Shown: positions 5,958 through 24,988, numbered from the stretch's first letter. The stretch: DNA of 64,000 nt from an uncultured Chloroflexia bacterium (GCA_963787025.1 CAWBBG010000015.1:32990-96989), one strand, 5' to 3'. Numbers and translations are program-made. Notes: a model not told the origin generated them from the letters alone.

Positions 5958-6128
5958 CGCTGTGGCAGCGCTGTGCAACAATGCGTCGTCTGGTTTTCCG
6001 CTCTGTTTGAGCGTGAAGCGCGCGCCCGTAGCTCAGCGGACAGAGCGGATGGCTTCGGACCAGAAACCCGATTGCGGTGTGCCTCTCCTCGTGGGATGCC
6101 GAGCATTTCGGCCGAGTTATCCGCTGTG
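5958..6128 (+). repeat. att-like repeat copy A: upstream leader, tRNA-Arg 5' half (6022-6062) and 66-nt arm (6063-6128)
   Basis: GCGCCCGTAGCTCAGCGGACAGAGCGGATGGCTTCGGACCA followed by GAAACCCGATTGCGGTGTGCC..CATTTCGGCCGAGTTATCCGCTGTG. Confidence 0.9.
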
Positions 6129-6175
6129 TTTGCCCTCGATCTCACCCTCCGTCCCCAGGCAGCCCCAGCGCGGGG

Positions 6176-7273
6176 TCACTGGAGGGAGGAAACGATCTCG
6201 CCTGCAGCCGAGGTCTCGAGGAGACGCGAGCCAAGCAGATAGACTCGGGCCCGCCGGTCTCCAGACCCGATGAGCCAGCCGCCCGCCACGGCACGGGCCA
6301 AGTCTCTGGTCGTGCTCTGCGGGCTGCGACCAGTAAGCGCGATGTAGTCCGATGCGCGCAGGTGGCGATTGACCCAGGCGAACGCCAGGCCATCGATCAT
6401 CGACGCCGGGAGGGCGCCCTCGGAGATGGCTCGCCGGATGGCGATCATGATTTCGCCGAGCCCGCGGATCCGCGCTAGGACGAAATCGGCCGAGTTCAGA
6501 AGCGAAGTCAGGAAGTACGAGACGAACGGGGTAGCGTCATACCCAGGCTCGTACGAACGACCAACTGCCGTGCGAATCGCGGCAAAGTATGCGGTCCGGT
6601 CGAGATCCAGCTGGGCATCAAGGGAGACCAAGCCGTCGAGGCCAAAGTCATGGCGGATGAGGATGAACCGCGACACGGCGCGTGCCGTCCGGCCATTGCC
6701 GTCGTTGAATGGGTGGATTGCGACCAGCTCGAGATGGGCGAGAGCCGCCGCCACCAACGGACCGTGTCGCGTCGGAGCCGATGTCAGCCATTGGGAGTAT
6801 TCGCGCATCAGAGACGGGACATCCCCCGACGGTGGCGTGCTGAAGATGGTCCCCCCAGCGTCGTCGATAACGCGGTTTTCGCCACGTCGGTATTCGCCGG
6901 GTGTCAGGAGGGGACTCTGACCCCATAGCACGCGCCGATGAATCTCCCGAATGAAGCCTTCATCGGGTCCAATCGCTGGCTTGGCTGCGAGTTCATCGAC
7001 GAGGGCAAGGGCCTCCCGGGTCCCGATAACCTCGCGGGCCTCTCGATCGTTCAGCCGGCGTCGTTCACCGCCGGCGAGCAGAGCTTCAACTTCCACGTCG
7101 GAGAGGGTGTTGCCCTCGATTCGCGTCGTTCCGTGGATGGTCCGTACCCAGGCTCGGTTGCGAAGCCAGCTGGCGTGAGTAGGGTCGATCGGCAGGTTGC
7201 GGAACAGCCAGCGGCGCTGATCCAGGTCCTCAAGGATCCGCCTGAGGCCACGTGAACGGAGCCGATACCGCAT
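6176..7273 (-). CDS. Fic family protein (Fic motif HPFNDGNGRTAR) with N-terminal TxxxEG inhibitory-type motif and C-terminal winged-helix-like region
   Basis: ORF 6176..7381. Start placed at ATG 7273 (MRYRL), preceded by GGGAGGAG. Motifs HGTTRIEGNTL and HPFNDGNGRTAR. Confidence 0.85.
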   Translation of the reverse strand: MRYRLRSRGLRRILEDLDQRRWLFRNLPIDPTHASWLRNRAWVRTIHGTTRIEGNTLSDVEVEALLAGGERRRLNDREAREVIGTREALALVDELAAKPAIGPDEGFIREIHRRVLWGQSPLLTPGEYRRGENRVIDDAGGTIFSTPPSGDVPSLMREYSQWLTSAPTRHGPLVAAALAHLELVAIHPFNDGNGRTARAVSRFILIRHDFGLDGLVSLDAQLDLDRTAYFAAIRTAVGRSYEPGYDATPFVSYFLTSLLNSADFVLARIRGLGEIMIAIRRAISEGALPASMIDGLAFAWVNRHLRASDYIALTGRSPQSTTRDLARAVAGGWLIGSGDRRARVYLLGSRLLETSAAGEIVSSLQ

Positions 7274-7283
7274 GCGCTCCTCC

Positions 7284-7307
7284 CGGTAATTGCGGATATT
7301 ATTACCG
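7284..7307. promoter_or_regulatory. inverted repeat CGGTAAT-N10-ATTACCG in the AT-richer region upstream of Fic-1
   Basis: Read directly. Lies 11-34 nt upstream of the proposed start at 7273. Confidence 0.3.
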
Positions 7308-7370
7308 CCCACGGTAGTATTCGCAACCTTTACAGCGTTACGTTCAGACGAGACCATCCCGCTCCTCGAG

Positions 7371-7531
7371 CGCTGTGGCACAATGCGTCGTCTGGTTTTC
7401 CGCTCTGTTTGAGCGTGAAGCGCGCGCCCGTAGCTCAGCGGACAGAGCGGATGGCTTCGGACCAGAAACCCGGCCGCGGTGTGCCCACCCTCCTGCAGCG
7501 CCGACCATTTCGCGCCGAGTTATCCGCTGTG
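7371..7531 (+). repeat. att-like repeat copy B (tRNA 5' half 7424-7464, arm 7465-7531)
   Basis: Same leader and the same 41 nt as copy A. Arm variant GAAACCCGGCCGCGGTGTGCCCACCC..CCATTTCGCGCCGAGTTATCCGCTGTG. Confidence 0.9.
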
Positions 7532-7538
7532 TCCCCCG

Positions 7539-7955
7539 TCAGTCCGGGAGGAGGAGCAGGGCGTCGACATGGCGCGGTCGGAGGACACCGAAATGGCGAT
7601 GGTCGAGCGTCGCCAGCTTCGGCTCATTCAGGCGCTCGACGACTGTCAGCACAGCCGCGTCGACATAGCCAATGTCGGCATCGGCGTACCGGTCGCACAG
7701 CTCGGCGATCCGACGATGATCGTCCGCGCTTAGGTTCACGAGCCCGTACGCTCCGCTCTCGATGTCCGCGAGCAACGCGACGAGCACGCCTGGGTGAAGG
7801 CTGCGATGGATGAGGTAGTCCACTTCGACGAGCACGGGAGCCGGGATCAGGAGCGGCTCCTCGCTGCTCTCGATCAGGTGCCGACAGCGAGAATGATCGT
7901 CATCACTGCGGTCGAGGGAGGCGTACAGGGGACCGGTATCGAGGATCAGCGCCAC
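7539..7955 (-). CDS. vapC: PIN-domain toxin VapC
   Basis: GTG start overlaps the vapB end. Acidic PIN residues in LDTGP, VEVDY, IGYVDAAV and TLDHRHF. Confidence 0.85.
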   Translation of the reverse strand: MALILDTGPLYASLDRSDDDHSRCRHLIESSEEPLLIPAPVLVEVDYLIHRSLHPGVLVALLADIESGAYGLVNLSADDHRRIAELCDRYADADIGYVDAAVLTVVERLNEPKLATLDHRHFGVLRPRHVDALLLLPD

Positions 7956-8170
7956 GTGCGCGGCTCAGCCAGCTCGTCGGCCGAGCGGCGAGCGATATCG
8001 GCCTTCCCCGACGCACCCGAGCCGATGCTGCGCGGACGCGGCCGGGCAGTCGCCAGCTTCTCGTCGATGGCCTCGCGCACGATGGTGGCCATCGAGACGC
8101 CGCGTTCGGCGGCGAGCCGTCTCAGCCTTCCCCGGAGTTCGGGTGGAAGGGTAAGGGTGGTGCGCTCCAT
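7946..8170 (-). CDS. vapB: ribbon-helix-helix (CopG/VapB-type) antitoxin
   Basis: MERTTLTLPPELRGRLRRLAAERGVSMATIVREAIDEKL is a typical RHH N-terminus. 10-nt overlap with vapC. Confidence 0.8.
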   Translation of the reverse strand: MERTTLTLPPELRGRLRRLAAERGVSMATIVREAIDEKLATARPRPRSIGSGASGKADIARRSADELAEPRTWR

Positions 8171-8193
8171 GGTGCAATGATAGCAGACGATGC

Positions 8194-8210
8194 ATCACCG
8201 TACTGGTGAT
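8194..8210. promoter_or_regulatory. inverted repeat ATCACC-N5-GGTGAT upstream of vapB (candidate operator)
   Basis: Read directly. Lies 24 nt upstream of the vapB ATG. Confidence 0.35.
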
Positions 8211-8224
8211 CTGGCAGACCATAT

Positions 8225-8396
8225 CGCTGTGCGAGCGCTGTGCAACAATGCCTCGTCTGGTTTTCCGCTCGGTTTGAGCGTGAAGCGCGCGCCCGTAGCT
8301 CAGCGGACAGAGCGGATGGCTTCGGACCAGAAACCCGATTGCGGTGTGCCTCTCCTCGTGGGACGCGGAGCATTTCGGGCCGAGTTATCCGCTGTG
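8225..8396 (+). repeat. att-like repeat copy C (tRNA 5' half 8289-8329, arm 8330-8396)
   Basis: Near-identical to copy A. Confidence 0.9.
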
Positions 8397-8441
8397 TCTG
8401 CCACCTGTAGGAGCCTCCCGCGCGCGGGCCCGCCAAGCGCT

Positions 8442-9503
8442 CTAGATGGCGCGCCGGCCGCGACGGCGGCTTCGCCGGTAGGCGAGGACATCGCGCTTCG
8501 TCGAGTACCAGCGACCGTTCTGGTGAGTCGCGCGGAGTCGGCCCGACTGCGCGGCTCTGCGCAGGGCCAGCGGGCTGAGGTCCCGCTCAGCCAGGGCTGA
8601 CAACGGCAGCAGCCGATGCGGGCCGGCGAGGGCCGGCAACAGGAAGCGGTCCAGCCCGTCCTTGACTGCGCGCGCCACGAGCTCCGCGAGGGACCCGCTG
8701 TTACCGCGATCGGCCCGGCGGAGTGCGGCCAGGTACTTCGCGCGGTCCCGCTTGTAGATCAGGGCGGGCGCGTAGCCTCGCCGCACGAGGAGCAGGTTGA
8801 GGGCGAGGCGACCTGCACGCCCATTCCCATCGCGGAACGGATGGATCTGCTCGAAGCGAGCATGGAGCGTAGCCAGGTGCTCCATGAGGTGCTGTCCGCT
8901 GCGGGGTGCCGCATTCGCGTCCCGGATCCAGTCGCTCATGAGCGCGTGGACGTCGGTGAATGGTGGTGGCTTCATCCCGCCGGCAAAGGCGCCGATGTCG
9001 TGCAGGCGGAATGACCCTGGCCCTTCCCCGGCGATGAGCTGTTCAGGAGGCTTCACTTTCCATACCGCCTCGACCAGGGTTCGGTGGATCTGTCGCAGCT
9101 CGGTCAGCGTGATGTGGTCGCTGGGTACCCAGGCCACCGCCTTAGTTGCCTGCTCGTATACCCATTCAGCGGCTTCTGCATAGCCCTGGACCTCGAGATA
9201 CTGCGCGAGCTCTTCATCCCCGACTGCACGTCCTTCTTCGAGCAAGACCCGGACTTGTTTGAGCAGCAGGGTGTTGCCCTCGATCGCGGTAGAGTTGTGC
9301 GCCTCCTCGTACCAGATGCCCGTCCAGATATCGCGTGCCTCAAACGGTGCGGGCAGCCCGCCGATGCGGCGCATCTCCTCGATCTCGCGATCGACGGCGT
9401 CGAAGATGGCGGTGCGCGAGGGGCGGCCGCGCTGCGGCATCTCAATCGGCATGAGTTCGGTACATACCTCGCCGGATAATTGGACCGTACCGAATTCTAG
9501 CAC
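8442..9503 (-). CDS. Fic family protein (Fic motif HPFRDGNGRAGR) with N-terminal SxxxEG motif; start uncertain (9440-9503)
   Basis: ORF 8442..9503 (GTG). Motifs HNSTAIEGNTL and HPFRDGNGRAGR. Divergent from Fic-1 outside the motifs. Confidence 0.85.
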   Translation of the reverse strand: MLEFGTVQLSGEVCTELMPIEMPQRGRPSRTAIFDAVDREIEEMRRIGGLPAPFEARDIWTGIWYEEAHNSTAIEGNTLLLKQVRVLLEEGRAVGDEELAQYLEVQGYAEAAEWVYEQATKAVAWVPSDHITLTELRQIHRTLVEAVWKVKPPEQLIAGEGPGSFRLHDIGAFAGGMKPPPFTDVHALMSDWIRDANAAPRSGQHLMEHLATLHARFEQIHPFRDGNGRAGRLALNLLLVRRGYAPALIYKRDRAKYLAALRRADRGNSGSLAELVARAVKDGLDRFLLPALAGPHRLLPLSALAERDLSPLALRRAAQSGRLRATHQNGRWYSTKRDVLAYRRSRRRGRRAI

Positions 9504-9549
9504 GTGCTTCGGTACGATGACCTCACAAGAAACCCACCGTACCGAATTC
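9456..9549. promoter_or_regulatory. array of four GTACCGAA/TTCGGTAC motif copies at the 5' end of, and upstream of, Fic-2
   Basis: TTCGGTAC 9456-9463, CGTACCGAATTC 9486-9497, TTCGGTACG 9508-9516, CGTACCGAATTC 9538-9549. The central spacer contains GCACGTGC. Confidence 0.35.
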
Positions 9550-9596
9550 CTTCCCGCTGGCCGAACTGTGAGCTAGATCTGACCCCCAGACCATCC

Positions 9597-9768
9597 CGCT
9601 GTCCGAGCGCTGTGGCAGAATGGCTCGCGTGGTCTTCCGCTCGCTTTGAGCGTGAAGCGCGCGCCCGTAGCTCAGCGGACAGAGCGGGTGGCTTCGGACC
9701 AGAAACCCCGCCGCGGTGTGCCTCTCCTCGTGGGACGTCGACCATTTCGGACTGAGTTATCCGTTGTC
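9597..9768 (+). repeat. att-like repeat copy D (tRNA 5' half 9661-9701 with the A-to-G variant, arm 9702-9768)
   Basis: More diverged leader (GGTCTTCCGCTCGCTTTGAGCGTGAA). The tRNA half reads GAGCGGGTGG. Confidence 0.85.
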
Positions 9769-10264
9769 AACTGGATCCGGCCTACGCCGTCTTTGCGGGG
9801 ACCACCATCGCGTTCGCGGGCGCCCCCGGCCTTGACTCCACGTCTGGCTGGGCCGGTTCACCGGAGGCGACAAAGCCGGAATGTCAGTTCGCCTCCGAGG
9901 CCGACCATCGCTCGTGTCTGTGCCACGCCGCAGTCGCCGAAACCACGGTGAAGTTCCAGCCCGCCGTGGCGCGGCAGCAGGGCGCGAGCTGCGATACGCC
10001 GCGATGGTGCGGCGTAGAGGGCGAACTCTGGTGCGTCGAGCCGCGCCGCTTTCGGTCGGCTCCGGGTTGGCATCGGTGAGGCGGCAGAGCGAAGCTGAAC
10101 CCGTTGCCGGAACCGCCGCGCTCTCACCTCCGGCGAAAGAGGACATTCGGCTCTTGCGGCGTGCGCGAGCACGTCGTACACCGGTGCCCAGACCTTCGGG
10201 AGAAGCCACAGCGGCCCCAGGCCAAAGGCACTGAATCCGCCAGGAAGGCGGGGAGGGGGGGATC

Positions 10265-11581
10265 GTGTCTCGCTTCGTCAAGGCGTTCACCATGGCGGTT
10301 GTTGCGCTGCTTGTGGCTTCGCCAATCCGCGCCGGCGACGGCACGTCCGCAGACACCACGGTTTCGGATGAGTTGCTATCGGCGGCAGTCGGGATGAGAC
10401 AGGCGTTCGGCTTGTCGGCGGATGCCGACTACGTGCGTACTCTCATGGCATCCTCGGGCGATGTGGGGACCCTAGTCTGGGGATTCCCACTCACAGCCGA
10501 GGAGATGCAGAGCCTGGACTTGCAGGGTCGGACCGCCTTCCAGGTGAATTCGCAGGCGGTCCAGGAGTACGCGAGCTCGTTGCCGGGGTTTGGCGGGGCA
10601 TATTTCGACCAAGTCGAAGGAGGCCAGCTTGTCCTCCAATTCACCGCACTGACGGCCGCCGACATGGCGCGCATCTCGCAGCTCGCCGCGACCGACGGCC
10701 CGACGACACGCGTTGAGATCGTGCGCTACTCCTTCGCGGCGCTGCAAGCTGCGATGTCCGCCGCCCAATCCGTGATCCAGGCCGTCGCCCCGTCGATTGA
10801 ACTGGAAAGCGTCGGCATTCGTGAGCCGGAGAATGGGCTGGCCGCCAAGGTCCTTGGATCGGCAGTTTCGATGAGCCAGCTGGAGTCCGCGGTGGCCGCA
10901 CAGCTCAGCGTCCCGATCAGGATCGAGGTTGCCTCAGGTCCACTCGTGCCGGGCTCATGCTCTTCCCGCGATGGGCTCTGCCAGCCCGAGAGGGGAGGGG
11001 TCTGGGCAGGAACGACGGTCGAGGGATGCACCTTCGGTTTCGTGGTCGTCAACGGTTCCGATAAGCAGTTCGTTACTGCGGGCCATTGCGGGAGTGCCTC
11101 TGCTTGGTATCAGCCCTATCCGCACGTTCACCTGCTTGGCTCGCTGCAATCGCAACTCTATCCAGGCACGCACATCGACATGGAGCGCGTCCAACTCCCT
11201 GACACCGATGCATCTAGGTACATCTTTGGCGAAGGCTCGACGTTGATCTACGGCAAGCGGATTCCGTCAACCGGCGCGCTCGTCTACGGATCCTTGGGCC
11301 ACTCCAACGCCGTCCGCTCAGGGACGGTGTACGCGGCCTACGGCAGCTACTACGTGAATGGCTACCAGCTAAACGGGGCAAACGTACATAACCTTGTGAC
11401 TCAAGGCGGTGACAGCGGGTCCCCCCTGTATTACCGCGAGAGTGTCCTCCCGTCTGGATACCAGCTCTATGCGACTGCGACGTACAGCGCTGGCCAAAGC
11501 GGTGGTGGAGAGGCCGACAGGTGGTGGGCGCGAGTCAACGATGCGCTGCTCCAATGGTCAGGTTGGGACATCTACCATTAG
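10265..11581 (+). CDS. secreted S1-family serine protease (alpha-lytic protease/streptogrisin-like) with long pro-region
   Basis: GTG start after a G-rich RBS. Signal-like MAVVALLVASPIRA. Catalytic motifs TAGHCG and GGDSGSPLYY. Confidence 0.85.
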   Translation: MSRFVKAFTMAVVALLVASPIRAGDGTSADTTVSDELLSAAVGMRQAFGLSADADYVRTLMASSGDVGTLVWGFPLTAEEMQSLDLQGRTAFQVNSQAVQEYASSLPGFGGAYFDQVEGGQLVLQFTALTAADMARISQLAATDGPTTRVEIVRYSFAALQAAMSAAQSVIQAVAPSIELESVGIREPENGLAAKVLGSAVSMSQLESAVAAQLSVPIRIEVASGPLVPGSCSSRDGLCQPERGGVWAGTTVEGCTFGFVVVNGSDKQFVTAGHCGSASAWYQPYPHVHLLGSLQSQLYPGTHIDMERVQLPDTDASRYIFGEGSTLIYGKRIPSTGALVYGSLGHSNAVRSGTVYAAYGSYYVNGYQLNGANVHNLVTQGGDSGSPLYYRESVLPSGYQLYATATYSAGQSGGGEADRWWARVNDALLQWSGWDIYH

Positions 11582-11652
11582 TGATCGCCTCTGGAGTTTC
11601 GAGAATGCCGCGTGAGTCCCTGCCTGGCGCGGGCCGAAAGGAATCCAGCGGA

Positions 11653-12102
11653 ATGATGACCCTACGACAGCTACGCATCGCCGCATGTGCGACGCTGATC
11701 GCCACCAACCTCGCTGCATGTAGCACTGCGTCACCCACCCCGCAGCCTGCCCCTGCCCGGTCCCCCGCGCCACTCCCGTCCGGCGCCACTGCTCTGACCC
11801 TGCCCACCGCGGCGCCGGAGGCCGTCATTCCGGTGCACTGGGCCTGCCCGGGGAACACGGTTCAGCCCTCAAAGGTCGTCCGCCACGGAGAGGCCGTGGT
11901 CTTCATCCTCCAGACCACCGGCCAACCCATCGACCTCGTGTGGCCGCGCGGCTTCTCCGCGCGACTTCTGAACGACAGGGCCGAGGTGGTGGCTCCGGAC
12001 GGAACGGTCGTGCTCCGGGAGGGAGACGTCTTCTCCGACATCATCAGTGGCGTGCCGGACATCTGCGAGGTGAAGGGCGTGGGCTACCCGCCAGCGTCGT
12101 AG
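11653..12102 (+). CDS. lipoprotein (lipobox LAAC), paralogue of the 15478-15918 lipoprotein
   Basis: MMTLRQLRIAACATLIATNLAAC. Shared motif LVWPRGFSA..VVAPDGTVVLREGDVF, compared with LVIWPAGSDYA..VLLPGGQVISEGDPL in the paralogue. Confidence 0.6.
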   Translation: MMTLRQLRIAACATLIATNLAACSTASPTPQPAPARSPAPLPSGATALTLPTAAPEAVIPVHWACPGNTVQPSKVVRHGEAVVFILQTTGQPIDLVWPRGFSARLLNDRAEVVAPDGTVVLREGDVFSDIISGVPDICEVKGVGYPPAS

Positions 12103-12459
12103 CGGGGCCCTGGCCGATGCCGGATACCCGCCGACCAAACATGCCAGGGTGGCGGGCCTGGCAGGTGATGGAGAGCAAAGCCCGCACCCAAATTCCACCA
12201 CGTCGCGTGAGGAGCGGAGAACCTGTTAGCGGTCGGCCTCGAGTAGCAGCAGCGAAAACGCGATTCCGCCGCTGAAGCCCGAAGGCGCGTCGTCGAACGT
12301 CGGGTCCTCGCGACGCTAGCTCCTCCTCCGCGTCAGCCTGACGTGCACCAAGACGTACACACTTTCCATTGCTTTTTGCATCCGTGGCGGCGTAGCGTCT
12401 ACACATGCCCTGGACCTCTCGTAAACCAACCGCAAACGCCGCAGCCCACCTGAGAGACC

Positions 12460-12996
12460 TCACTGCCCTGGCTCGGCCAGAATGCCCTGGTTGGGCCCAC
12501 GGCTGACTGCCCTGTCACATGAGGCGAGCGGTCCCTCGCAGGCGGCCAGGATGCGGCGCAGCTCGTCATCGGTCAGGATCGGTGGCGCGTGCTCGGGCAC
12601 CTTCGGCTTGTGCATGCGGGCCATGGGGTTGTCGCCCAGCTCAGCCTCGTCGACCAGCCACACAAAGAACGGGCGGATCCCCGAGCGATTGGCCGCGGTG
12701 GCCCGCGTCCAGTGCGCCAGCTGGTCCTCCATGAACGATTCGAGGTGTTCGCGGCGAATGGCGGCCACATCGGTCGGCATGCCACGCGCCTCGAGGAATT
12801 CAGCCAGCCTGCCGAGCGAGGCGAGATAGGTGCGCTGGGTGGCGAGTGAGAGGTTCTCGGCGCGCAGATGCCGCGCGAAGCTCGCCACGTTGGCGCCGAG
12901 GTCGCCGCGGGGTACCATGACCGGACTGGAGGGGGCTGACTGCATCCTGAGACGGCTCTGACGGGTTTCCGAAGACGCGTCGAATTTTCCGCTCAT
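12460..12996 (-). pseudogene. truncated tyrosine integrase (N-terminal SAM-like domain only)
   Basis: The first ~155 aa are identical to the integrase at 23863-24858, up to ILAACEGP. The sequence then becomes unrelated and stops. No catalytic R..HxxR..Y region. Confidence 0.85.
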
Positions 12997-13091
12997 AGCG
13001 CTGTAGTCAATGCCGAATCTGGTTTTCCGCTCTCTTTGAGCGTGAAACGCGCGCCCGTAGCTCAGCGGACAGAGCGGGTGGCTTCGGACCA
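12533..13091 (+). repeat. 559-bp direct repeat, copy 1 (partner 24395-24953), one mismatch (13078 G vs 24940 A)
   Basis: Base-by-base comparison of the two stretches. Identical sub-ORFs appear in the track (12573..12785 and 24435..24647). Confidence 0.9.
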
Positions 13092-13158
13092 GAAACCCGA
13101 CTGCGGTGTGCTCGCCCTCGTGAAGCGGCGACCATTTCGCGCCGAGTTATCCGCTGTC
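12999..13158 (+). repeat. att-like repeat copy E (tRNA 5' half 13051-13091 with the G variant, arm 13092-13158)
   Basis: Leader identical to that of the intact tRNA copy. Arm GAAACCCGACTGCGGTGTGCTCGCC..CCATTTCGCGCCGAGTTATCCGCTGTC. Confidence 0.9.
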
Positions 13159-15918: not shown

Positions 15919-15952
15919 CCTTCGGCCCTAATGCTCGCGGGTCGCTCCGCCC

Positions 15953-17559: not shown

Positions 17560-18900
17560 AGTGCGTGAACAACGGCTTGCCACATCAGGCCGCCGACACC
17601 TGTGCCGACTGCGGCACGTACACGCCGTCGACGAAGCGGGCGCCGCCGAGCAGCAGGGTCATGACCGTCAGCCCGCCGTTCAAGGGTCGCCAGGAGTGCT
17701 CGAGGCGCTGGGCGACCTTGAACACCAGGTAGAGGGCGTTCTCGCGGCGGCGCATGCGCTTGGCGACGTCGGTCCGGAGGCGCACCCCGGCGAACACCGA
17801 CTCGATCGGGTTGCTGGTGCGCAGGTGGATCCAGTGCTCGGCCGGAAAGTCGTAGAAGGTCACGAAGTCGTCCCAGTCGCGCAGCACCGTCTCGGCCGCG
17901 CTCGTCTGGCCGTGGGCCTCCAGCCAGCGCACGAGGGCGTCGCGACGCAGCTCGCACTCGGCGCGGCTCTCCGAGCTCCACGCCTCACGCAGCCGGCGCC
18001 GGGTCTCGGGCCACAGTCGTTTTGGGACCTTATCCAGCACGTTGAGAACGCGATGGTTCCAGCAGCGCTGGTGGCGGGTGGTCGGGAAGACTTCGTCGAG
18101 GGCGGCCCACAGCCCGAGCGCTCCGTCGCCGCAGGCGAGCAGCGGTGCGGCCAGGCCGCGATCCCGGAGGTCGCGCAGCACGCCGGCCCAACTGGCGGCG
18201 CTCTCGCGGTAGCCGAGCGGGCGCACGCGCCAGGCGGCGTATTCAGTCGCCCACTCGTCCTTGAGGCGCAGGATGGTCGAGCCTGACAGCGGTGCAGACT
18301 CGCCGAGCAGCTCGCGGAAGGCGGGCTCGAAGTCGCCGGAACTCAACCCCTCGAGGTAGAGCCGCGCGAAGAGTCGTTGGGTCTCGGCCGAGAGCATGCG
18401 GCGCCGCGGCAGGATCGAGCTGTGGAACGACTCCCCGTCCTCGGGCAGGTCGCGCACCCGCGGTGCGCGCACCTCAACCGGCCAAGTCCCGATCGCCACC
18501 GCTCGCGGGCGACCGTACCCATTGCGGTAGCCGTGCTCGGCGAGCAGGCGGCGCTGGTAGCGAGATCGGCCGAGGAACTCGTCGACCTCGGCGGCGAGTG
18601 CCCGTTCGAGCATGCGCCGTGCGCCCTCCCGGGCCAGCTCCTCGATGGTCGTGTTGACGACCGCGGCTGGCTGCTCGTCTGGATGCGTCGGCTCGGGCTC
18701 CTCGGACGGCTTTGATGTAGTCGCCGGCGCGATCGCGTGCTCGCCCATCTGCTGGTCCGGCGGCTGAGACGGCGCGAACGAGGTCAGGGCATGGTACGTT
18801 TCCATCGCGGCGTGCTCCTTCTGTAGCCTGAAGACCTTCGGAGGGTACGCCGCTTTCTCATGCCCGCGAGAGGACGAGGAGCGCAGCGGCGTTTACACAC
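17560..18900 (-). mobile_element. IS256-family insertion sequence (ends not confidently defined)
   Basis: The transposase gene fills the element. Only weak terminal similarity was seen around the GTGTGTAA/GTGCGTGAA motifs. Confidence 0.5.
17585..18805 (-). CDS. IS256-family (mutator-type) transposase with an apparent in-frame internal deletion of the first catalytic Asp region
   Basis: Family motifs ELAREGARRML, YRNGY, CGDGALGLWAAL, HQRCWNHRVLNVL, HLRTSNPIES. The segment normally between ..EYAAW.. and ..YRESxxSW.. is missing (YAAWRVRPLGYRESAASW). Confidence 0.8.
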   Translation of the reverse strand: METYHALTSFAPSQPPDQQMGEHAIAPATTSKPSEEPEPTHPDEQPAAVVNTTIEELAREGARRMLERALAAEVDEFLGRSRYQRRLLAEHGYRNGYGRPRAVAIGTWPVEVRAPRVRDLPEDGESFHSSILPRRRMLSAETQRLFARLYLEGLSSGDFEPAFRELLGESAPLSGSTILRLKDEWATEYAAWRVRPLGYRESAASWAGVLRDLRDRGLAAPLLACGDGALGLWAALDEVFPTTRHQRCWNHRVLNVLDKVPKRLWPETRRRLREAWSSESRAECELRRDALVRWLEAHGQTSAAETVLRDWDDFVTFYDFPAEHWIHLRTSNPIESVFAGVRLRTDVAKRMRRRENALYLVFKVAQRLEHSWRPLNGGLTVMTLLLGGARFVDGVYVPQSAQVSAA

Positions 18901-18933
18901 GCCGTGACGTTAGCTCTCCTCCTGCGCCACTTC

Positions 18934-18955
18934 AGACGTACACCTAGACGTACAC
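18934..18955 (+). promoter_or_regulatory. tandem direct repeat AGACGTACAC-CT-AGACGTACAC upstream of the 18999 ORF (candidate operator)
   Basis: Read directly. A homologous block lies at about 12338-12365 in unit 4. Confidence 0.35.
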
Positions 18956-18998
18956 ACATTCCCTTGTTTCGCCCCGGCACCCTCGATACGTTGTTCGC

Positions 18999-19319
18999 AT
19001 GCCGATACGCGTTACTCCGGCCCGTCTTCGCGATGAGCTGACCGAACTCTGTGTGCGTGCGTCCGCTGGCGAGCAGCTTGTCGCGGCGGGCGTCCACCAG
19101 GCGCCGGTCCTCATCCGCCCGGTAAGGCGGCGAGACCAGGGTGCGCGAACGAGCCTCACCGTCTTCCGGCGGCAGCTGCATCGCATCCTGCGCCAGGCTG
19201 CCCAGGAGCCGGTCATCGTCACTGGGGGCGGTGATCCTGTGCTGTGGCTGGGTCCGACGGTCGTCCCGGCTGACTTCGGTACGGGGTCGGGGGCTGGGCA
19301 CCGTCGCAGGAGGCGGTGA
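18999..19319 (+). CDS. hypothetical protein, possibly a Phd/YefM-like or Xis-like small DNA-binding protein
   Basis: MPIRVTPARLRDELTELCVRASAGEQLV..APVLIRP loosely fits the Phd/YefM N-terminal pattern. A competing antisense ORF exists (18858..19361). Confidence 0.3.
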   Translation: MPIRVTPARLRDELTELCVRASAGEQLVAAGVHQAPVLIRPVRRRDQGARTSLTVFRRQLHRILRQAAQEPVIVTGGGDPVLWLGPTVVPADFGTGSGAGHRRRRR

Positions 19320-19603
19320 TGGGACGGCGCGGGAGCGGCTCCAGCCGATCGGAGCGGGCACTGCGAGGCCGCATGGGTGCCCACCTACTGCATGCCACCC
19401 ACGATTCCCGGCGCTTGACCGAGAAGGCTCGCGCTTCGTTCATGGCGAGCTTCGAGCGGCAGGTCGATCCGGATGGCAGCTTGCCGGCTGACGAACGTCG
19501 GCGGCGGGCGGCCCATGCCCGGGCGGCCTACTTCGCCAGGCTCGCACGGCGCAGCGTGCTGGCGCGTGGGCGGCGCAAACGTCGTCGTCGCGGCAGGGGA
19601 TGA
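19316..19603 (+). CDS. hypothetical basic protein (Arg-rich C-terminus)
   Basis: Start/stop overlaps with both neighbours (GTGATG at 19316, ATGA at 19600). ..RRRRAAHARAAYFARLARRSVLARGRRKRRRRG. Confidence 0.4.
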   Translation: MMGRRGSGSSRSERALRGRMGAHLLHATHDSRRLTEKARASFMASFERQVDPDGSLPADERRRRAAHARAAYFARLARRSVLARGRRKRRRRGRG

Positions 19604-20559
19604 GCGTCACAGCTCGCCATGGCGGTTCCCGCCGTCCGAGGGCGATGGGTCCGCCAGGCATGCTGGCCTGGACGGCGTTGCCCGTCCGTGATCAGCGGCT
19701 GATCACCTGGCTGTGGGCCGGCGACGTGGTCAATGCCGAGCTGGCCGCCGTCCTCGCCTACGGCAACCTGCGCGTCGCCCAGCGCCGACTGGCGCGCCTG
19801 GTCGAGTACGGCATCCTGCGCGGCTTCTGGGCGGCGAACCGCCAGCGTCCCCGCGGCCGCTACGCCTACGCCCTGACCAAGGCGGCCCGCAAGGACGTCG
19901 AGTACCTGCTCTGGGAGCACCACCCTCCGGAGCCAGTAACCGGCCAGCTCCAGGCGCCCTCGCCGGTCATTCATCAGCTGGCCACCCATGATCTGCTGGC
20001 CGCCTTCCTGCGCGCCTCACCGCTGACCGAGGAGATCGGGCTGGCGGGCTGGGTGCCCGAACACGCCGCGGCCCTGCGCTACGACGGTGCGCTGCGGCCG
20101 GATGCCATCGCCATCGTCCGCCGCGGCGAGGTCGGCACCCTGCTGATCATCGAGCGCGACCTGGGCAGCGAACGCCACGAGATCCTGCTCGATAAGCTGC
20201 GCCGCTACAACTTCATCCACGTCCATCCGGCCGGCAGCAACCTGGGCTTCATCCTCGACAGCCGGCGCCGCGCCGTCGCGTTGCTCGTCTCGCTGCGCGC
20301 CGCTGCCCAGCGCAGCCCTGCGTGGTACGGGGAGTCCCACATCCCGTGCTGGGTGGCGGTCGGCGCTGACCTGCTGGACGACCCGTTCGGCACCCCCTGG
20401 CGCTCGCCGGATGGAGAAGAGGCGAGCGTGCTCACCATGCCGACCATCGCCGTGCCCGGCCCGCTGCCGGTCCTTTCGGTTCCGCCCTTGCTCGATGACG
20501 GCGCCGAGGGCGCCTTCGACGATCGGGCCCTGAGCGCCGCTGGCTGGCGCGGCCGCTAG
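19600..20559 (+). CDS. replication-relaxation family protein
   Basis: N-terminal wHTH-like LRVAQRRLARLVEYGILRGF. HQLATHDLLAAF..LRPDAIAIV..LIIERDLGSE is typical of the family. Confidence 0.65.
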   Translation: MSVTARHGGSRRPRAMGPPGMLAWTALPVRDQRLITWLWAGDVVNAELAAVLAYGNLRVAQRRLARLVEYGILRGFWAANRQRPRGRYAYALTKAARKDVEYLLWEHHPPEPVTGQLQAPSPVIHQLATHDLLAAFLRASPLTEEIGLAGWVPEHAAALRYDGALRPDAIAIVRRGEVGTLLIIERDLGSERHEILLDKLRRYNFIHVHPAGSNLGFILDSRRRAVALLVSLRAAAQRSPAWYGESHIPCWVAVGADLLDDPFGTPWRSPDGEEASVLTMPTIAVPGPLPVLSVPPLLDDGAEGAFDDRALSAAGWRGR

Positions 20560-20903
20560 CGAGTCCATCCTCGTCCTTACCCTGAACCCACTGGGAAGCC
20601 TGCGCCCGCTCGCACGCCTAGAAGCCCTGTCGCGCTCCGGAACGTGTCCCCGTCATGTCCGTGTGCGAGAGCCGCGACCGTGGCTCGCACAGGGGCGCGT
20701 CAATCTGGCGTGCTCAACCGCCCGCTTGCTGAACCCCGACATCTCTATAGATATGCGCCTGTGCGGTCAAGGAGGGCGCGTGAAAGCGCATGGCTTCCGC
20801 GCAGGCGGCCAGGATGTCGGCTGCCCTGTGCGTACCCGAGCGGACCATGCAGGCCGAAGCCAGCAGCCGGACGAAGGCGGTGTCACCTTGGTCCTCGCCC
20901 TAG

Positions 20904-21937
20904 TTGTCGTTCCCGCTCACGTTGTTGACAAGTTGAGAGCCCTCGTGCTCGGTATGGGGTTGTCGAAGCTCCATTCCGACGGAGGGCTCTCATGCTCCAT
21001 CGTACGGCCAAGCTGACGCCGTTCGGCCGACGGCTCCTGGTCGATCGGGTCCTGCTCGAGGGCTGGCCGGCCGCGACCGCCGCCGAGCAGCTCGGGGTCA
21101 GCCGGGCGACCGCGTACAAGTGGCTGCGGCGGTACCGAGCCGAGGGCGACGCCGGTCTCGAGGACCGCTCCGCGCGCCCGCTCCACCGGCCTCGGGCGTT
21201 GCCCGAGCGCGAGGTCCGCCGGATCCTGGTCGCCCGGAGACGGCTGCGGGTCGGGCCCCACCGTCTCGGTCCGCTCCTCGGCCATTCCCGCTCGACGGTG
21301 TACGGCGTCCTCCGCCGCCACGGCGTGAGCCGCCTGGCGCATGCCGATCGGCTGACCGGCGTCCCGGTCCGCTACGTCCGGGAGCGTCCCGGCGAGCTGA
21401 TCCACGTCGACGTCAAGCGGCTCGGGCGGGTGCCGCCCGGCGGCGGCCACCGGATGCTCGGCGAGGACGCCCGCAAGCACGTCGGGGCGGGATACGACTA
21501 CCTCCACGTCGCGATCGACGACGCGACCCGGGTGGCGTACGTCGCGGTGCGGCCGGATGAGCAGGCCGCGAGCACGGTCAGCTTCATCGAGGAGGCCGTC
21601 GCGTTCTTCGCCGGGCAGGGCGTCCGGGTCGAGCGGGTGATGACCGACAACGCCTGGACGTACACCCACTCAACCCGCCTCGCCGCCCTGTTCGCCGATC
21701 TCGGCATCCGCCATGTCCGGACCCGGCCCCGGCGTCCCCAGACCAACGGCAAGGCCGAGCGCTTCATCGGGACGATCCAGCGGGAGTGGGCGTACGCCCG
21801 CCTGTTCCGCTCGAACGACGAGCGCCTGGCGACCCTGCCCGGCTGGGTCGACGCCTACAATCGCAGGCGTCCCCACGCCGGGCTCGACGGCCGGACGCCG
21901 CTATCGGTCCTCGTCAACAAGGTCGACGAGAACGACA
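20904..21937 (+). mobile_element. IS481-family insertion sequence with imperfect ~30-bp terminal inverted repeats and a 6-bp target duplication CCTAGT
   Basis: Left end TGTCGTTCCCGCTCACGTTGTTGAC. Reverse complement of the right end TGTCGTTCTCGTCGACCTTGTTGAC. CCTAGT at 20898-20903 and at 21938-21943. Confidence 0.85.
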
Positions 21938-21942
21938 CCTAG
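20992..21942 (+). CDS. IS481-family DDE transposase
   Basis: HTH SRATAYKWLRRY. DDE region IHVDVK..MTDNAW..PQTNGKAERF. The stop codon TAG lies in the duplicated target. Confidence 0.9.
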   Translation: MLHRTAKLTPFGRRLLVDRVLLEGWPAATAAEQLGVSRATAYKWLRRYRAEGDAGLEDRSARPLHRPRALPEREVRRILVARRRLRVGPHRLGPLLGHSRSTVYGVLRRHGVSRLAHADRLTGVPVRYVRERPGELIHVDVKRLGRVPPGGGHRMLGEDARKHVGAGYDYLHVAIDDATRVAYVAVRPDEQAASTVSFIEEAVAFFAGQGVRVERVMTDNAWTYTHSTRLAALFADLGIRHVRTRPRRPQTNGKAERFIGTIQREWAYARLFRSNDERLATLPGWVDAYNRRRPHAGLDGRTPLSVLVNKVDENDT

Positions 21943-22412
21943 TGCCGGAGCAGGCCGGCACCTGCCGCCCTAGCTTTTCGACGAGGCGCAGCACCGACGA
22001 CGGCTCGTCGGGGATGGGCGGCAGGCGTCTGGGCGACGTCCGGAACTCGCGGATCTCGTCCTCCTTACCAGGCAGCGGATTCTCTGTTGGTGCTCCGGCG
22101 CGTTGTCGCCAGGGGGCTATCCGGACCTTGCCGTGGTGGGCCTGCTTGCGAGCCCCTTGTCGCCGCCGGCGTCAACGAGGCGCCGCGATCGTCATGTGCC
22201 AAGTGTGGCCTCGTGATCGAGGTGCGCGAACGGGCCCCGCCATCTTGCACGCGGCCCGACAGGCTCTCCTCGTAGAGGCGGGCGTCCTTCGTTCCCCGAG
22301 TGTTTATTACCCCGGTCGAGAGCATGCATGACGCGGGGGTCGTCCCCGACGCCCACCAGCCAACTGCAAGTCTCATCGGCGTGGATGAAATCCATTCGGC
22401 CAGCCGATGAAG

Positions 22413-22437
22413 GGCAGCCCGCCGACGGCGGGCTGCC
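22413..22437 (-). terminator. strong GC hairpin GGCAGCCCGCC-GAC-GGCGGGCTGCC about 40 nt downstream of the 22480 stop
   Basis: 11-bp perfect stem read directly. Weak T-rich tail only. Confidence 0.5.
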
Positions 22438-22479
22438 TTCTGCCGGGCATGAGTGGTGCGACGCCTTGCCGAGCGGGGC

Positions 22480-22812
22480 CTACGCGGTCGATGACCTCCG
22501 TCGCATGTTTGCCGCTGTGCTCGCGAGACCTGCCACGAGCAGGACTGCGGCACCGACCAGCCATCCGCCGAGATACGGCTCGCTACACGTGCTACACGCG
22601 GGCGGATGGATGGCGAGGAGAATGAGGCTGAGGCCGCCTATCCCCGTCAAGAGGCCCGTTCCAATGACCACGCGGTGGCGCGATACGAGCACGCCCACCA
22701 CGACTACGCCCGCCACTGCCACTCCGAGAACTCCAACTAAGAAGAAGAGCAAAGCAGCCGACGCTCCGAGGAGCGCTCCCAGTGTCCAGAATCCTGAGCG
22801 CGAGATAGTCAT
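22480..22812 (-). CDS. small hydrophobic membrane protein (about 4 TM)
   Basis: ATG 22812 overlaps the TGA of the upstream gene (ATGA). GFWTLGALLGASAALLFFLVGVLGVAVAGVVVVGVLV.. Confidence 0.55.
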   Translation of the reverse strand: MTISRSGFWTLGALLGASAALLFFLVGVLGVAVAGVVVVGVLVSRHRVVIGTGLLTGIGGLSLILLAIHPPACSTCSEPYLGGWLVGAAVLLVAGLASTAANMRRRSSTA

Positions 22813-23579
22813 GGCGACCATGTTCCATACGTCCTGTGTTCCCAGACGGGAGCACAACTGTCCACCGTGTTCGAGTCATAGCTCAGGGTCACGGTCCCAT
22901 TGCCCCGCCCGTATACGCGGTTGTAGTAATAGTACGTCCACGTCGTGGTCGGCCAGCAGAACAGGCTGTTCTTGAAGGTCGCAGTTGTGTTGCCGTAGTA
23001 GTAGGTACAGCTGAGCGAGTGGTAGATGTTGTGCGCCTCAAGCGACCAGCCCGATAGGCCGAAGTACTCAACTAGCTGCTGAGTCGAGCCGCTCAGCGCA
23101 CAGCTGCCGTCCCATTCCCAGGTAATGCGGGTGGTGTCGCCGTTCAGGGTCTTTCCAATAACGTCTTCCCACCAGTTCTTCTGATAGTACCGACTTGTAT
23201 GCGAGATCGAGTCCGGAGCGGCTGACCCGAGAGCGTCGAGGCTAAAGGTTGCGAGAGTAAGCTCTTGGGGGGAGGTGTCTGGTTGAGACGGCACGCCCTC
23301 CTCAACGAGCTTCTTGCAGTGGAGTTGGTCTATCGCAACGTCGCGAACCTCCCACCCGTCAGAAGATGGCCCGAGAGACACGTCCGTTGCATGGAAATGA
23401 CATCCATTCGGAATGCGCTCGCCGAGGACCCAGGAAAGCCGGCTGTTCTCCAGCGGCGCACGCGACCCTTGGAACCACACCAATGAATCGGCTGCACCGT
23501 TCACAGGTGCAGCCTGCGCTATGGACACCCCTCCGAGAAGTAGTGCGAACGCGAAGATACGCAGTCTCCGAATCATCAT
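22809..23579 (-). CDS. secreted hypothetical protein, Tyr/Trp/Cys-rich, no recognised domain
   Basis: GGGAGGGAG RBS before ATGATG. Signal MMIRRLRIFAFALLLGGVSIAQA. C-terminal part CTYYYGNTTATFKNSLFCWPTTTWTYYYYNRVYG. Codon usage less GC-biased than the flanks. Confidence 0.65.
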   Translation of the reverse strand: MMIRRLRIFAFALLLGGVSIAQAAPVNGAADSLVWFQGSRAPLENSRLSWVLGERIPNGCHFHATDVSLGPSSDGWEVRDVAIDQLHCKKLVEEGVPSQPDTSPQELTLATFSLDALGSAAPDSISHTSRYYQKNWWEDVIGKTLNGDTTRITWEWDGSCALSGSTQQLVEYFGLSGWSLEAHNIYHSLSCTYYYGNTTATFKNSLFCWPTTTWTYYYYNRVYGRGNGTVTLSYDSNTVDSCAPVWEHRTYGTWSP

Positions 23580-23862
23580 GCGACTCCCTCCCTGTTGCCC
23601 GCACCCGAGTTGTCCGGCGCACCCAGCTGTCAGTGACTCGGCTCCCTGCCGCGAGGCAGATGCCTCGGTACGGGCATCTACCGGTAACCCTGAGATGGCA
23701 AGAGCCAGACTGTCAAGAGTCGTTTGACCTCGCGGGCGAGACTGACCCGGCGCAGGAGCTGCCGGGCAGATCGACCACCGTCTGTCAGGGGCGGCTGCGC
23801 GCCGCCGAAGGCCAGCCGTGCGGGTAACGATCATCCGAAGGCCGATTGCGCCCGACTTCGGG

Positions 23863-24858
23863 CTACAGTCGGTCGCCGATGCCGAGCCGCCTGGCGGCCG
23901 CGATGGCGCGCTCCCGCTCGGCGCTCTTCGCGTAGCGCGACAGCATCTCGCGGCTGCGCCAGCCCGCGAGGGCCATGACCTCGCCCTCCTGCATGCCGCT
24001 CGATAGCGCCTCGTGGGCATAGGTGTGGCGGAACAGGTGGGCGTGGAGCTGTGGGACCCTCGCGGCGGCACCCCGCCGCCGGAGGACCTGGGCGATCCCG
24101 GAGTCGGTCATCCGGCCCTTCTCGCCCAGCCACAGCCAGGGCGCTTCAGCGCGCGGGTGGCGAGCGCGGAGGCGCAGGTAGCGGTCGAGCGCGCGCACGG
24201 CCTTGGCGCCGAGGTGGACGATCCGCTCGCGCCGACCCTTGCCCATGACCCGCATCAGCCCGGCGTCGAGGTCGAGGTCATTGGTCGCGGGGTCCGCTGG
24301 CGTCCAGCGCAGGTTGGCGACCTCCGACAGGCGGGCGCCGGTGGCGAGGAAGGTGCGCACCAATGCGGCATCCCGGCGATCGGCGAAGGTCGGCCCCTCG
24401 CAGGCGGCCAGGATGCGGCGCAGCTCGTCATCGGTCAGGATCGGTGGCGCGTGCTCGGGCACCTTCGGCTTGTGCATGCGGGCCATGGGGTTGTCGCCCA
24501 GCTCAGCCTCGTCGACCAGCCACACAAAGAACGGGCGGATCCCCGAGCGATTGGCCGCGGTGGCCCGCGTCCAGTGCGCCAGCTGGTCCTCCATGAACGA
24601 TTCGAGGTGTTCGCGGCGAATGGCGGCCACATCGGTCGGCATGCCACGCGCCTCGAGGAATTCAGCCAGCCTGCCGAGCGAGGCGAGATAGGTGCGCTGG
24701 GTGGCGAGTGAGAGGTTCTCGGCGCGCAGATGCCGCGCGAAGCTCGCCACGTTGGCGCCGAGGTCGCCGCGGGGTACCATGACCGGACTGGAGGGGGCTG
24801 ACTGCATCCTGAGACGGCTCTGACGGGTTTCCGAAGACGCGTCGAATTTTCCGCTCAT
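23863..24858 (-). CDS. tyrosine recombinase/integrase (XerC/D-like phage integrase family)
   Basis: Start at ATG 24858 (MSGKFDASS). The track ORF extends spuriously across the tRNA. Catalytic-type motifs ARLSEV, HLFRHTYAH, GWRSREMLSRY. Confidence 0.9.
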   Translation of the reverse strand: MSGKFDASSETRQSRLRMQSAPSSPVMVPRGDLGANVASFARHLRAENLSLATQRTYLASLGRLAEFLEARGMPTDVAAIRREHLESFMEDQLAHWTRATAANRSGIRPFFVWLVDEAELGDNPMARMHKPKVPEHAPPILTDDELRRILAACEGPTFADRRDAALVRTFLATGARLSEVANLRWTPADPATNDLDLDAGLMRVMGKGRRERIVHLGAKAVRALDRYLRLRARHPRAEAPWLWLGEKGRMTDSGIAQVLRRRGAAARVPQLHAHLFRHTYAHEALSSGMQEGEVMALAGWRSREMLSRYAKSAERERAIAAARRLGIGDRL

Positions 24859-24953
24859 AGCGCTGTAGTCAATGCCGAATCTGGTTTTCCGCTCTCTTTG
24901 AGCGTGAAACGCGCGCCCGTAGCTCAGCGGACAGAGCGGATGGCTTCGGACCA
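24395..24953 (+). repeat. 559-bp direct repeat, copy 2 (partner 12533-13091)
   Basis: See copy 1. Confidence 0.9.
24861..24912 (+). promoter_or_regulatory. conserved leader upstream of tRNA-Arg (repeat copy F, presumed to contain the tRNA promoter)
   Basis: CGCTGTAGTCAATGCCGAATCTGGTTTTCCGCTCTCTTTGAGCGTGAAACGC is conserved in all six copies from TGGT(T/C)TTCCGCTC onward. No canonical -10/-35 hexamers were recognised. Confidence 0.35.
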
Positions 24954-24988
24954 TCAGGTCGCGGGTTCGATTCCTGCCGGGCGCGCCA
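24913..24988 (+). tRNA. tRNA-Arg (anticodon UCG), CCA encoded
   Basis: Cloverleaf read by eye: acceptor GCGCCCG/CGGGCGC; D arm GCTC-AGCGGACA-GAGC; anticodon arm GATGG-CTTCGGA-CCATC; variable AGGTC; T arm GCGGG-TTCGATT-CCTGC; discriminator G; CCA. Confidence 0.95.

Follow-up and report, generated by a model that had tools for sequence, protein, structure and literature searches.

Probable tandem accretion of small integrative units at a single tRNA-Arg(UCG) gene in an uncultured Chloroflexota bacterium

The DNA analyzed here, hereafter the window, is a stretch of 64,000 nucleotides (nt) from an uncultured Chloroflexia bacterium (GCA_963787025.1 CAWBBG010000015.1:32990-96989), and it carries an island that is bounded and partitioned by copies of the 5' part of a tRNA-Arg(UCG) gene. 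A pattern search with nt 1-41 of this tRNA returns exactly six matches, all on the plus strand, which start at positions 6022, 7424, 8289, 9661, 13051 and 24913, whereas the chance expectation for this pattern is none (100 shuffles). The only complete tRNA in the window is the functional tRNA-Arg(tcg) at 24913-24988 (+), as identified by ARAGORN and by Rfam (tRNA, 66.9 bits); at E<=1, Rfam matches nothing else in the window. The five truncated copies (c1 to c5) form a family of 183-nt direct repeats that are 76-100% identical; relative to the reference copy c2, the identity is 76-88% for 5949-6131, 8216-8398 and 9588-9770, and 79% for c5. An alignment reveals that all six copies have a common leader 5' of the tRNA part and that they part directly after ...GGACCA (C39-C40-A41), that is, at tRNA position 41. 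Past this point, the five truncated copies continue into a common non-tRNA segment of approximately 68 nt, designated X (GAAACCC...GAGTTATCCGCTGT), and the sixth copy continues into the 3' part of the tRNA (TCAGGTCGCGGG...). The initial annotation, a reading of the unaided sequence, had described six such copies with a common leader, of which the last alone is complete and the others switch after the CCA to a common non-tRNA segment, and the pattern search, the alignment and the tRNA predictions agree with each of these points.

The five junctions, each on the plus strand, have the same anatomy, in which the tRNA part is flanked by a leader (the P arm) and by X (the P' arm). Junction 1 (5949-6131) consists of a P-arm-like leader (5949-6021), tRNA nt 1-41 (6022-6062) and X1 (6063-6131); it is the leftmost junction, yet its upstream sequence is of the element type and not native. 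Junction 2 (7351-7533), with its tRNA part at 7424-7464 and X2, is a complete site resembling a phage-type attachment site (attP). Junctions 3 (8216-8398; tRNA part 8289-8329), 4 (9588-9770; tRNA part 9661-9701, with G for A at position 28) and 5 (12978-13160; tRNA part 13051-13091) are built likewise with X3, X4 and X5, and each internal junction is a complete attP-like site of approximately 180 bp. The leader of the functional tRNA (24859-24912, +) contains the inverted repeat TTCCGCTC-tcttt-GAGCGTGAA at 24887-24908, and this repeat, in the general form TTCCGCTC-N5-GAGCGTGAA, is confined to the six copies within the window. The motif at the end of X is found at the five junctions and, with three mismatches, at one unrelated position on the minus strand (52078-52093). 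A sigma-70 consensus scan gave no match at the leaders, and the -10-like boxes TACAAT, TAGGAT and CACAAT are candidates that were picked by eye only.

The copies delimit five units. Cassette 1 (6063-7464, -; 1402 bp between copy starts) comprises X1, a Fic gene (6176-7381, -; Pfam Fic, 5e-17), a P arm and the 5' tRNA copy 2, and has no integrase. Cassette 2 (7465-8329, -; 865 bp) carries a VapBC pair, with VapC (PIN domain) at 7539-7955 (-; Pfam PIN, 4e-9) and the RHH antitoxin VapB at 7946-8170 (-; Pfam RHH_1, 1.5e-7), and cassette 3 (8330-9701, -; 1372 bp) carries a second Fic gene, Fic2 (8442-9503, -; Pfam Fic, 1e-18). Three of the five units are thus integrase-less cassettes holding one gene or one toxin-antitoxin pair, which encode Fic or VapBC alone and no recombination or transfer genes. 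Unit 4 (9702-13091, both strands; 3390 bp) contains open reading frames (ORFs) that match no family, some of them on the plus strand, and a truncated integrase adjoining its P arm (12460-12996, -); the latter retains the N-terminal 178 codons, matches Pfam Phage_int_SAM_1 alone and departs in translation from the intact integrase after about residue 153. Unit 5 (13092-24953, both strands; 11,862 bp, or 11.9 kb) begins with X5, ends with a P arm and the 5' tRNA part, and is the only unit of the window with an intact integrase. In addition to this Xer-like tyrosine integrase (23863-24858, -), Pfam identifies in unit 5 a sigma-70-type factor (14029-14565, -), a C39-like peptidase (16735-17388, -), transposases of the IS256 (17585-18805, -) and IS481 (20992-21942, +) families and a Replic_Relax gene (19600-20559, +).

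Both Fic genes, the VapBC pair and the truncated and intact integrase genes lie on the minus strand, each starting beside a leader. A perfect 549-bp repeat (12529-13077 and 24391-24939) spans the N-terminus of the integrase, the P arm with the leader and tRNA nt 1-27, and it breaks off just before tRNA position 28, where c5 has G and the functional gene has A. The gene content given in the initial annotation is largely reproduced by Pfam (two Fic genes, VapBC, IS256, IS481, Replic_Relax, one intact and one truncated integrase); of the two secreted proteases that it listed, one corresponds to the C39-like domain, and the other, a 438-aa ORF at 10265-11581, matched no family in the profile search. 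A 420-aa ORF at 22809-24071 was rejected as a gene, as it reads through the 3' end of the integrase in another frame. The G+C content of the island is approximately 60-69%, and the 17-22 kb region, with the two insertion sequence (IS) elements and Replic_Relax, matches the approximately 70% of the flanks. These flanks carry genes for a MacB-type ABC permease and a PCC-domain protein on the left and CBS, VIT1 and phosphoketolase genes on the right.

The intact integrase comprises 331 aa when read from the ATG at 24858; homologues are called from Met18, which gives 315 aa. Its start codon and the 5' end of the tRNA are 54 nt apart, and the gene is directed away from the tRNA. The protein matches PF00589 Phage_integrase (3e-25, positions 3-170 of 172), the tyrosine recombinase family, and a SAM-like N-domain of Pfam, an architecture of the 'simple' tyrosine recombinase type without an arm-binding domain. 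In the alignment to XerD (1a0p), ATGARLSE, GKGRRER and HLFRH correspond to the Arg, Lys and HxxR motifs, and the Trp and Tyr (AGW...SRY) are read directly from the sequence past the aligned stretch. XerC and XerD are the closest named relatives, with scores far below the equivalog cutoffs of NCBIfam (149.5 bits against 335 for XerC and 136.3 against 329.6 for XerD), and the integron integrase model TIGR02249 scores 42.5 bits against a cutoff of 265, with a match to the N-terminal part alone. By these scores, the integrase is predicted to be Xer-like in architecture only and not a chromosomal XerC or XerD. The best match to the integrase is 94% identical, the CBS protein of the window is absent from the collection searched, and within the collections searched the integrase family is confined to Limnocylindria-type Chloroflexota. 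A phage or plasmid origin was considered and rejected: neither the tRNA/X junction pattern nor a relative of the integrase was found in the viral contigs of IMG/VR, no plasmid match to the integrase exceeds about 30% identity, and PHROGs matched only the integrase, apart from a marginal nicking-Rep match for Replic_Relax.

A scan of one genome per species for relatives of the integrase gave nine related loci (loci are cited by their L numbers), mostly in metagenome-assembled genomes (MAGs) of Ca. Limnocylindria; from the relatives alone, the host of the island would be a member of this group of Chloroflexota. The integrase is divergent from and upstream of a full tRNA-Arg(tcg) in six of the nine loci (L001-L004, L006 and L008), down to 55% integrase identity. 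L003 and L008 have a single distal copy of the 5' tRNA part with X, 2.6 and 8.7 kb away, respectively, and the sequence upstream of this copy is native chromosomal DNA rather than an element leader, which indicates that it is the element that carries the leader and the 5' 41 nt of the tRNA. The DNA upstream of the copies adjacent to the PCC gene in L003, L029, L044, L046 and L048 is native too, and its -10 box is mostly TACAAT (TTACCAT in L048), whereas in 9 of 13 loci the leader of the functional tRNA is of the element type. These observations support a replacement of the 5' half and the promoter of the tRNA gene by the elements, not of the usual 3' half. In the window, it is likewise supported that nt 1-41 of the functional tRNA were brought by unit 5 and its leader (24859-24912) was supplied by the element, with nt 42-76 being the resident chromosomal 3' part. 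In the Islander collection, by comparison, 3760 islands have a 3' fragment and 159 a 5' fragment, for a total of 3919 (PMC4383910).

The same gene also seems to be a target of classical insertion of the 3'-end type, as copies of the extreme 3' end of tRNA-Arg (CCTGCCGGGCGCGCCA), 16-17 nt in length, are present at L048:15844-15859 and L022:8043-8059, which is 1.7 and 0.8 kb downstream of the full gene, respectively. The copy in L048 encloses a Meth_synt_2-like gene and no integrase, and the window has no such copy.

The locus between PCC and the tRNA is conserved, and its array differs in every genome examined. On the 218-kb contig of L048, MacB and PCC lie to the left of the array and CBS and VIT1 to its right, and these flanks are 79-95% identical to those of the window. 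The array itself has four copies and no integrase, and its three cassettes hold a 160-aa ORF, a PHD-like pair and a Fic gene with 78% identity to Fic2, respectively; the first copy is preceded by native DNA and shows decay. The homology of the window to L048 ends about 17 nt past the PCC stop codon, and this end, together with the element-type arm at c1, suggests that the leftmost copy of the window is not the original chromosomal left attachment site (attL) and that the true attL has been deleted. With one integrase truncated, two IS elements inserted and the original attL lost, the window seems to have undergone decay. The initial annotation had proposed repeated site-specific integration at one tRNA gene, a proposal upheld by the integrase-tRNA linkage in six loci, by the native DNA upstream of the single distal copies and by the variable arrays, among them that of L048, which differs from that of the window despite the same flanks. 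The case that the annotation had named as counting against it, one array common to close relatives, is thereby answered. Its remark that unusually many copies are retained holds for the six in the window, but the window is not unique, as L011 and L048 have four copies each.

Units are also found in new combinations. Cassette 3 is present at 95.6% identity (blastn with window 8232-9769) in the metagenome locus L011, where its neighbours on both sides are different. Counted from the tRNA start, L027 and L023 share about 99% identity between -450 and about +47 and nothing thereafter, and L027 and L037 are unrelated up to -30 and then differ by one mismatch through +330. Such one-sided identities indicate that exchange took place within the common leader/tRNA core and that it is recent. 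The right end of L010 and the left end of L011, both from sample ERZ25039483, have a Replic_Relax fragment and three small ORFs in common by overlap, and the two contigs probably represent one genome with two tandem integrase elements, a Fic cassette and a toxin-antitoxin cassette, an array as complex as that of the window. Among loci anchored on PCC, the closer relatives carry arrays, and the distant ones have no full tRNA gene within the fetched locus, up to 8 kb beyond PCC. A 19-nt fragment of the tRNA 5' end lies approximately 6.5 kb from PCC in L055 (14928-14946), L056 (13861-13879) and L057 (11748-11766), directly upstream of an AbiEii/AbiEi pair, and may be what is left of a former junction.

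When metagenome contigs were scanned for exact matches to the pattern of the tRNA/X junction, 36 contigs were obtained, and with the MAG loci about 60 junctions could be compared. X is conserved throughout, in more than 50 junctions from more than 40 contigs, and the similarity ends beyond ...CCGCTGTC. The consensus of X is GAAACCCC-(G/T)GAGCGCTGTG-N4-5-GAGCGTGG-~20 nt-CGRGTT(A/T)TCCGCTGTC, with the P' arm motifs GCGCTGTG, GAGCGTG and GTT(A/T)TCCGCTGT. Upstream of the tRNA part, three classes are distinguished: a native class, at PCC-adjacent copies, with a TACAAT box approximately 12 nt before the tRNA part; element type 'A', with GAGCGCTGTG...CAATG... followed by the leader inverted repeat; and element type 'B', with GGTAGGATGTC... 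followed by the same inverted repeat as type 'A'. The motifs GAGCGCTGTG, GAGCGTG and TTTTCCGCT occur on either side of the tRNA part without a change of orientation and are putative protein-binding sites.

Across loci, 30 units are bounded on both sides, with lengths of 865-11,862 bp and a median of approximately 1.5 kb. An intact integrase is present in four of them, namely in L003, L008 and L011 and in unit 5 of the window, and it is supported that most units are integrase-less one-gene cassettes rather than decayed whole elements. The smallest integrase-bearing element, in L003, is 2.6 kb long and consists of X, a Kelch gene, the integrase and a P arm, and a backbone of the integrase and Replic_Relax, as in unit 5, is common to L005, L006, L010 and L011. 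The cargo includes Fic proteins, VapBC and PHD-like toxin-antitoxin pairs, a GNAT acetyltransferase, a PhzF-like protein, ECF sigma/anti-sigma pairs, a PD40 propeller, an SH3-domain protein and a 1022-aa cyclase-STAND-TPR protein. The commonest cargo is a Kelch-repeat lipoprotein of approximately 400 aa with about six repeats (L003:8674-9978 in oriented coordinates, L015, L024, L028, L036 and L041), the copies of which are 70-80% identical and sometimes stand two or three in tandem. The anti-sigma-like protein in L022 has a C-terminal Kelch domain like that of these lipoproteins.

Taken together, the island was, with good confidence, built up in tandem from small integrative units that accreted at its single tRNA-Arg(UCG) gene. 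In the mechanism proposed, the Xer-like tyrosine recombinase would act at a core site formed by the anticodon stem-loop of the tRNA gene, and the attachment (att) site of the element, approximately 180 bp in length, would consist of the P arm (with a promoter-like -10 box and the leader inverted repeat), tRNA nt 1-41 and X as the P' arm. A single integration would join the promoter, leader and 5' 41 nt of the element to the resident 3' 35 nt, which would leave the tRNA intact, and the resident promoter and 5' half would be displaced and fused to X at the far end. Upon repeated integration, older units would be pushed away from the gene, with a complete P-O-P' site at every internal junction. 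Two kinds of unit would result, those with an integrase, some of which also carry Replic_Relax, and integrase-less units of 0.9-3.4 kb that keep both att arms; the latter are most likely moved by the integrase in trans, as are cis-mobilizable elements (CIMEs) or integron cassettes. The crossover may be placed in the anticodon stem-loop because the identity between the junctions and the gene ends at position 41, because the sole good inverted repeat is the anticodon stem GATGG/CCATC with its 7-nt loop, and by analogy to the anticodon-loop ('A') sublocation class of tRNA-gene integration, which was reportedly defined by Williams in 2002. Of this scheme, the sequences show the anatomy of the junctions, the polarity, the linkage of integrase and tRNA across the family, the variability of the arrays and the reassortment at the junctions; the exact cleavage positions, catalysis by the integrase of the window and independent circular cassette intermediates are inferred. 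Identical cassettes in different arrays and the one-sided identity at junctions are indirect evidence that the cassettes could be mobilized independently by the integrase in trans.

Several points weigh against this interpretation. No unoccupied PCC-tRNA site was found among the 15 PCC-anchored loci (five PCC homologues). The retrieval pattern demands the junction of the tRNA copy with X, so the metagenome contigs give no occupancy frequencies. In some cassettes (L022 and L036), the upstream arm is of the native type with TACAAT and lacks the inverted repeat of the leader, and therefore the P-arm motifs are not universally required or those units are of different origin. Additionally, position 28 (A/G) is linked to neither flank across loci, and c5 and the functional copy differ there despite 549 identical bases leftward, so that the point of crossover is not fixed to the base. 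Position 28 may belong to the heteroduplex of the exchange; alternatively, conversion, or selection in the expressed copy, may act on it. The G28-U42 wobble of several functional tRNAs was at one stage taken as a recombination footprint, a view that was withdrawn as the PCC-adjacent attL copies in the same loci also have G28; the wobble may be native. Finally, the reassortment breakpoints fall in a stretch of approximately 80 nt that is common to all units, and homologous recombination could therefore give the same pattern.

A less probable but serious alternative builds on this last point: one or a few true integrations would have been followed by the building and reshuffling of arrays mainly through homologous recombination and unequal crossing-over between the repeats of approximately 90-180 bp, for instance after DNA uptake, with the integrase-less units as fixed remnants. 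All junctions offer 41 nt of near-identical tRNA and conserved arms as substrate, the breakpoints are confined to this common stretch, no integrase lies near many of the arrays, and the Kelch lipoprotein units in L036 are tandem paralogues with 70-80% identity. However, each unit has complete conserved P and P' arms around cargo that is unrelated between units, X is conserved in more than 50 junctions with unrelated sequence directly beyond it, and the same cassette is found at 95-100% identity between different neighbours on both sides. Moreover, the origin of the junction between the tRNA copy and X itself requires a site-specific event.

It is very improbable that the truncated copies are instead functional RNA genes kept by selection, each transcribed from a tRNA-type promoter, with a tRNA 5' half and X in one RNA that would act as a decoy for an anticodon nuclease such as VapC or as a small RNA. 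Such genes would account for the promoter-like leader, for the whole D-arm and anticodon loop being kept at 88-100% identity across the compared junctions, and for the frequency of toxin genes as cargo. RNAalifold on 50 junctions found no helix in X and no covariation in any of the 11 predicted pairs (0/11), the D-stem and trivial pairs being the only ones predicted; a hand-picked 4-bp palindrome in X is paired in just 66% of cells, with weak two-haplotype covariation only, and Rfam matches the full tRNA alone. The conservation has a simpler cause, in that the 5' half must work once expressed and also serves as the att core. The chance that the repeats stem from faulty assembly, or from simple tandem duplication in place of the region upstream of the tRNA, is negligible: repeats often cause misassembly in metagenome-derived genomes, and related contigs often end at the repeat (L010, L019 and L024), but the six copies differ at diagnostic positions with unrelated genes between them, and comparable arrays were assembled independently from other samples (L011, L036 and L048). 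Tandem accretion by site-specific integration is the preferred explanation of the island.

Two features of the window lie outside the island. The adjacent segments of approximately 2 kb at 34918-36919 and 36994-38996 both match one region of L003 and L007 at 72-77% identity and look like a tandem gene duplication. The ORFs at 46671-48224 (-) and 46773-48467 (+) overlap nearly completely, and both have a coding-like G+C content at third codon positions.

The island resembles several known systems and differs from each. It has in common with the tRNA-gene (tDNA) islands of the Islander/TIGER type a tyrosine integrase, insertion in a tRNA gene that is restored by the element, a displaced fragment in direct orientation at the far end and, occasionally, tandem arrays; the intact tRNA with five upstream 5' fragments in direct orientation is a configuration that Islander allows. 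In contrast to these islands, it is the 5' part that is displaced here, so that the element must supply a promoter and leader, and most units are integrase-less and shorter than 2 kb, below the Islander/TIGER filters. Of the window units, cassettes 1-3 (1402, 865 and 1372 bp) lie outside the Islander length range of 2-200 kb and have no integrase, unit 4 has a truncated one and unit 5 an intact one, whereas Islander expects each island to contain an integrase. Only four of the Islander islands stand in tandems of at least three (PMC4383910).

Accretion of integrative and conjugative or mobilizable elements and CIMEs (Streptococcus ICESt-type; Dehalococcoides ssrA) is alike in its tandem arrays at one tDNA with many att repeats and in units that lack an integration module and keep both att sites, and cassettes 1-3 have the structure of CIMEs, being flanked by related att sites and devoid of recombination or transfer genes. 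In Dehalococcoides, which also belongs to the Chloroflexota, the ssrA islands comprise more than a dozen repeats and 15 module-less islands (PMC3146451), with serine recombinases, a 20-bp repeat of the 3' end of the transfer-messenger RNA (tmRNA) gene and multi-gene islands; here, a Xer-like tyrosine enzyme, a repeat of the 5' 41 nt and leader, complete sites of approximately 180 bp and mostly single-gene units are observed instead. The tycheposon report describes, in Prochlorococcus, tRNA-seeded islands of cargo-bearing tyrosine-recombinase elements, with partial tRNAs between successive integrations and degenerate remnants (bioRxiv 10.1101/2020.12.28.424599). These features recur here in another host phylum and with another integrase family; tandem elements are noted there in 'a few cases', and the parts consulted do not describe ordered arrays in which one-gene cassettes lack an integrase and have complete att sites.

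Integrons and clusters of attC sites lacking integron-integrases (CALINs) are alike in that their arrays consist of small units, most of which hold a single gene and point the same way and each of which has its own recombination site, that some arrays have no nearby integrase, that cassettes reassort and that toxin-antitoxin pairs are among the cargo. Here, however, the integrase is not of the IntI type, the sites are not folded attC-like hairpins, the anchor is a tRNA gene rather than attI, and the integrase rides on a mobile unit rather than being a fixed platform gene. The outcome thus appears to resemble that of integrons, with predicted machinery that is different. The pdif modules of Acinetobacter plasmids are small, often carry toxin-antitoxin or resistance genes, are bounded by Xer sites and depend on a recombinase in trans; they rely on the XerC/D of the host and on plasmid-borne dif-like sites of 28 bp, whereas the units described here would use a dedicated Xer-like integrase, a tRNA anticodon stem-loop and sites of approximately 180 bp. 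Accretion at tDNA with integrase-less att-flanked units is already known from streptococcal CIMEs, Dehalococcoides ssrA islands and tycheposon-seeded islands. The present island is set apart by the 5' polarity with promoter replacement, a Xer-like integrase family that in the collections searched is confined to Limnocylindria-type Chloroflexota, complete sites of approximately 180 bp at every junction and the predominance of one-gene cassettes.

Island surveys have a blind spot for such arrays: Islander and TIGER require an integrase per island and discard anything below 2 kb, so these arrays are invisible to them, and the DNA pattern alone yielded the 36 metagenome contigs, with several MAGs having the integrase beside the same tRNA. 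The compact recombinase of 315-331 aa, together with its site of approximately 180 bp, could serve as a tool for site-specific insertion. Given the 5'-side polarity, no mobile unit can do without a functional tRNA promoter and 5' half, which is a selective constraint on the conservation of the att site. A further reading, less likely than not, is that Ca. Limnocylindria possesses a second, non-integron gene-cassette system, in which individual one-gene cassettes would be taken up, excised and rearranged by a Xer-like recombinase acting at the anticodon loop of tRNA-Arg(UCG). The site of approximately 180 bp on each cassette would double as the tRNA promoter and 5' half, and the need for a working tRNA after every insertion would keep the sites intact. 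If the integrase-less units do move by themselves, the array, with a cargo that includes toxin-antitoxin pairs, Fic proteins, ECF sigma factors and surface lipoproteins, would represent an independently evolved system of cassette capture in an abundant, uncultured soil lineage.

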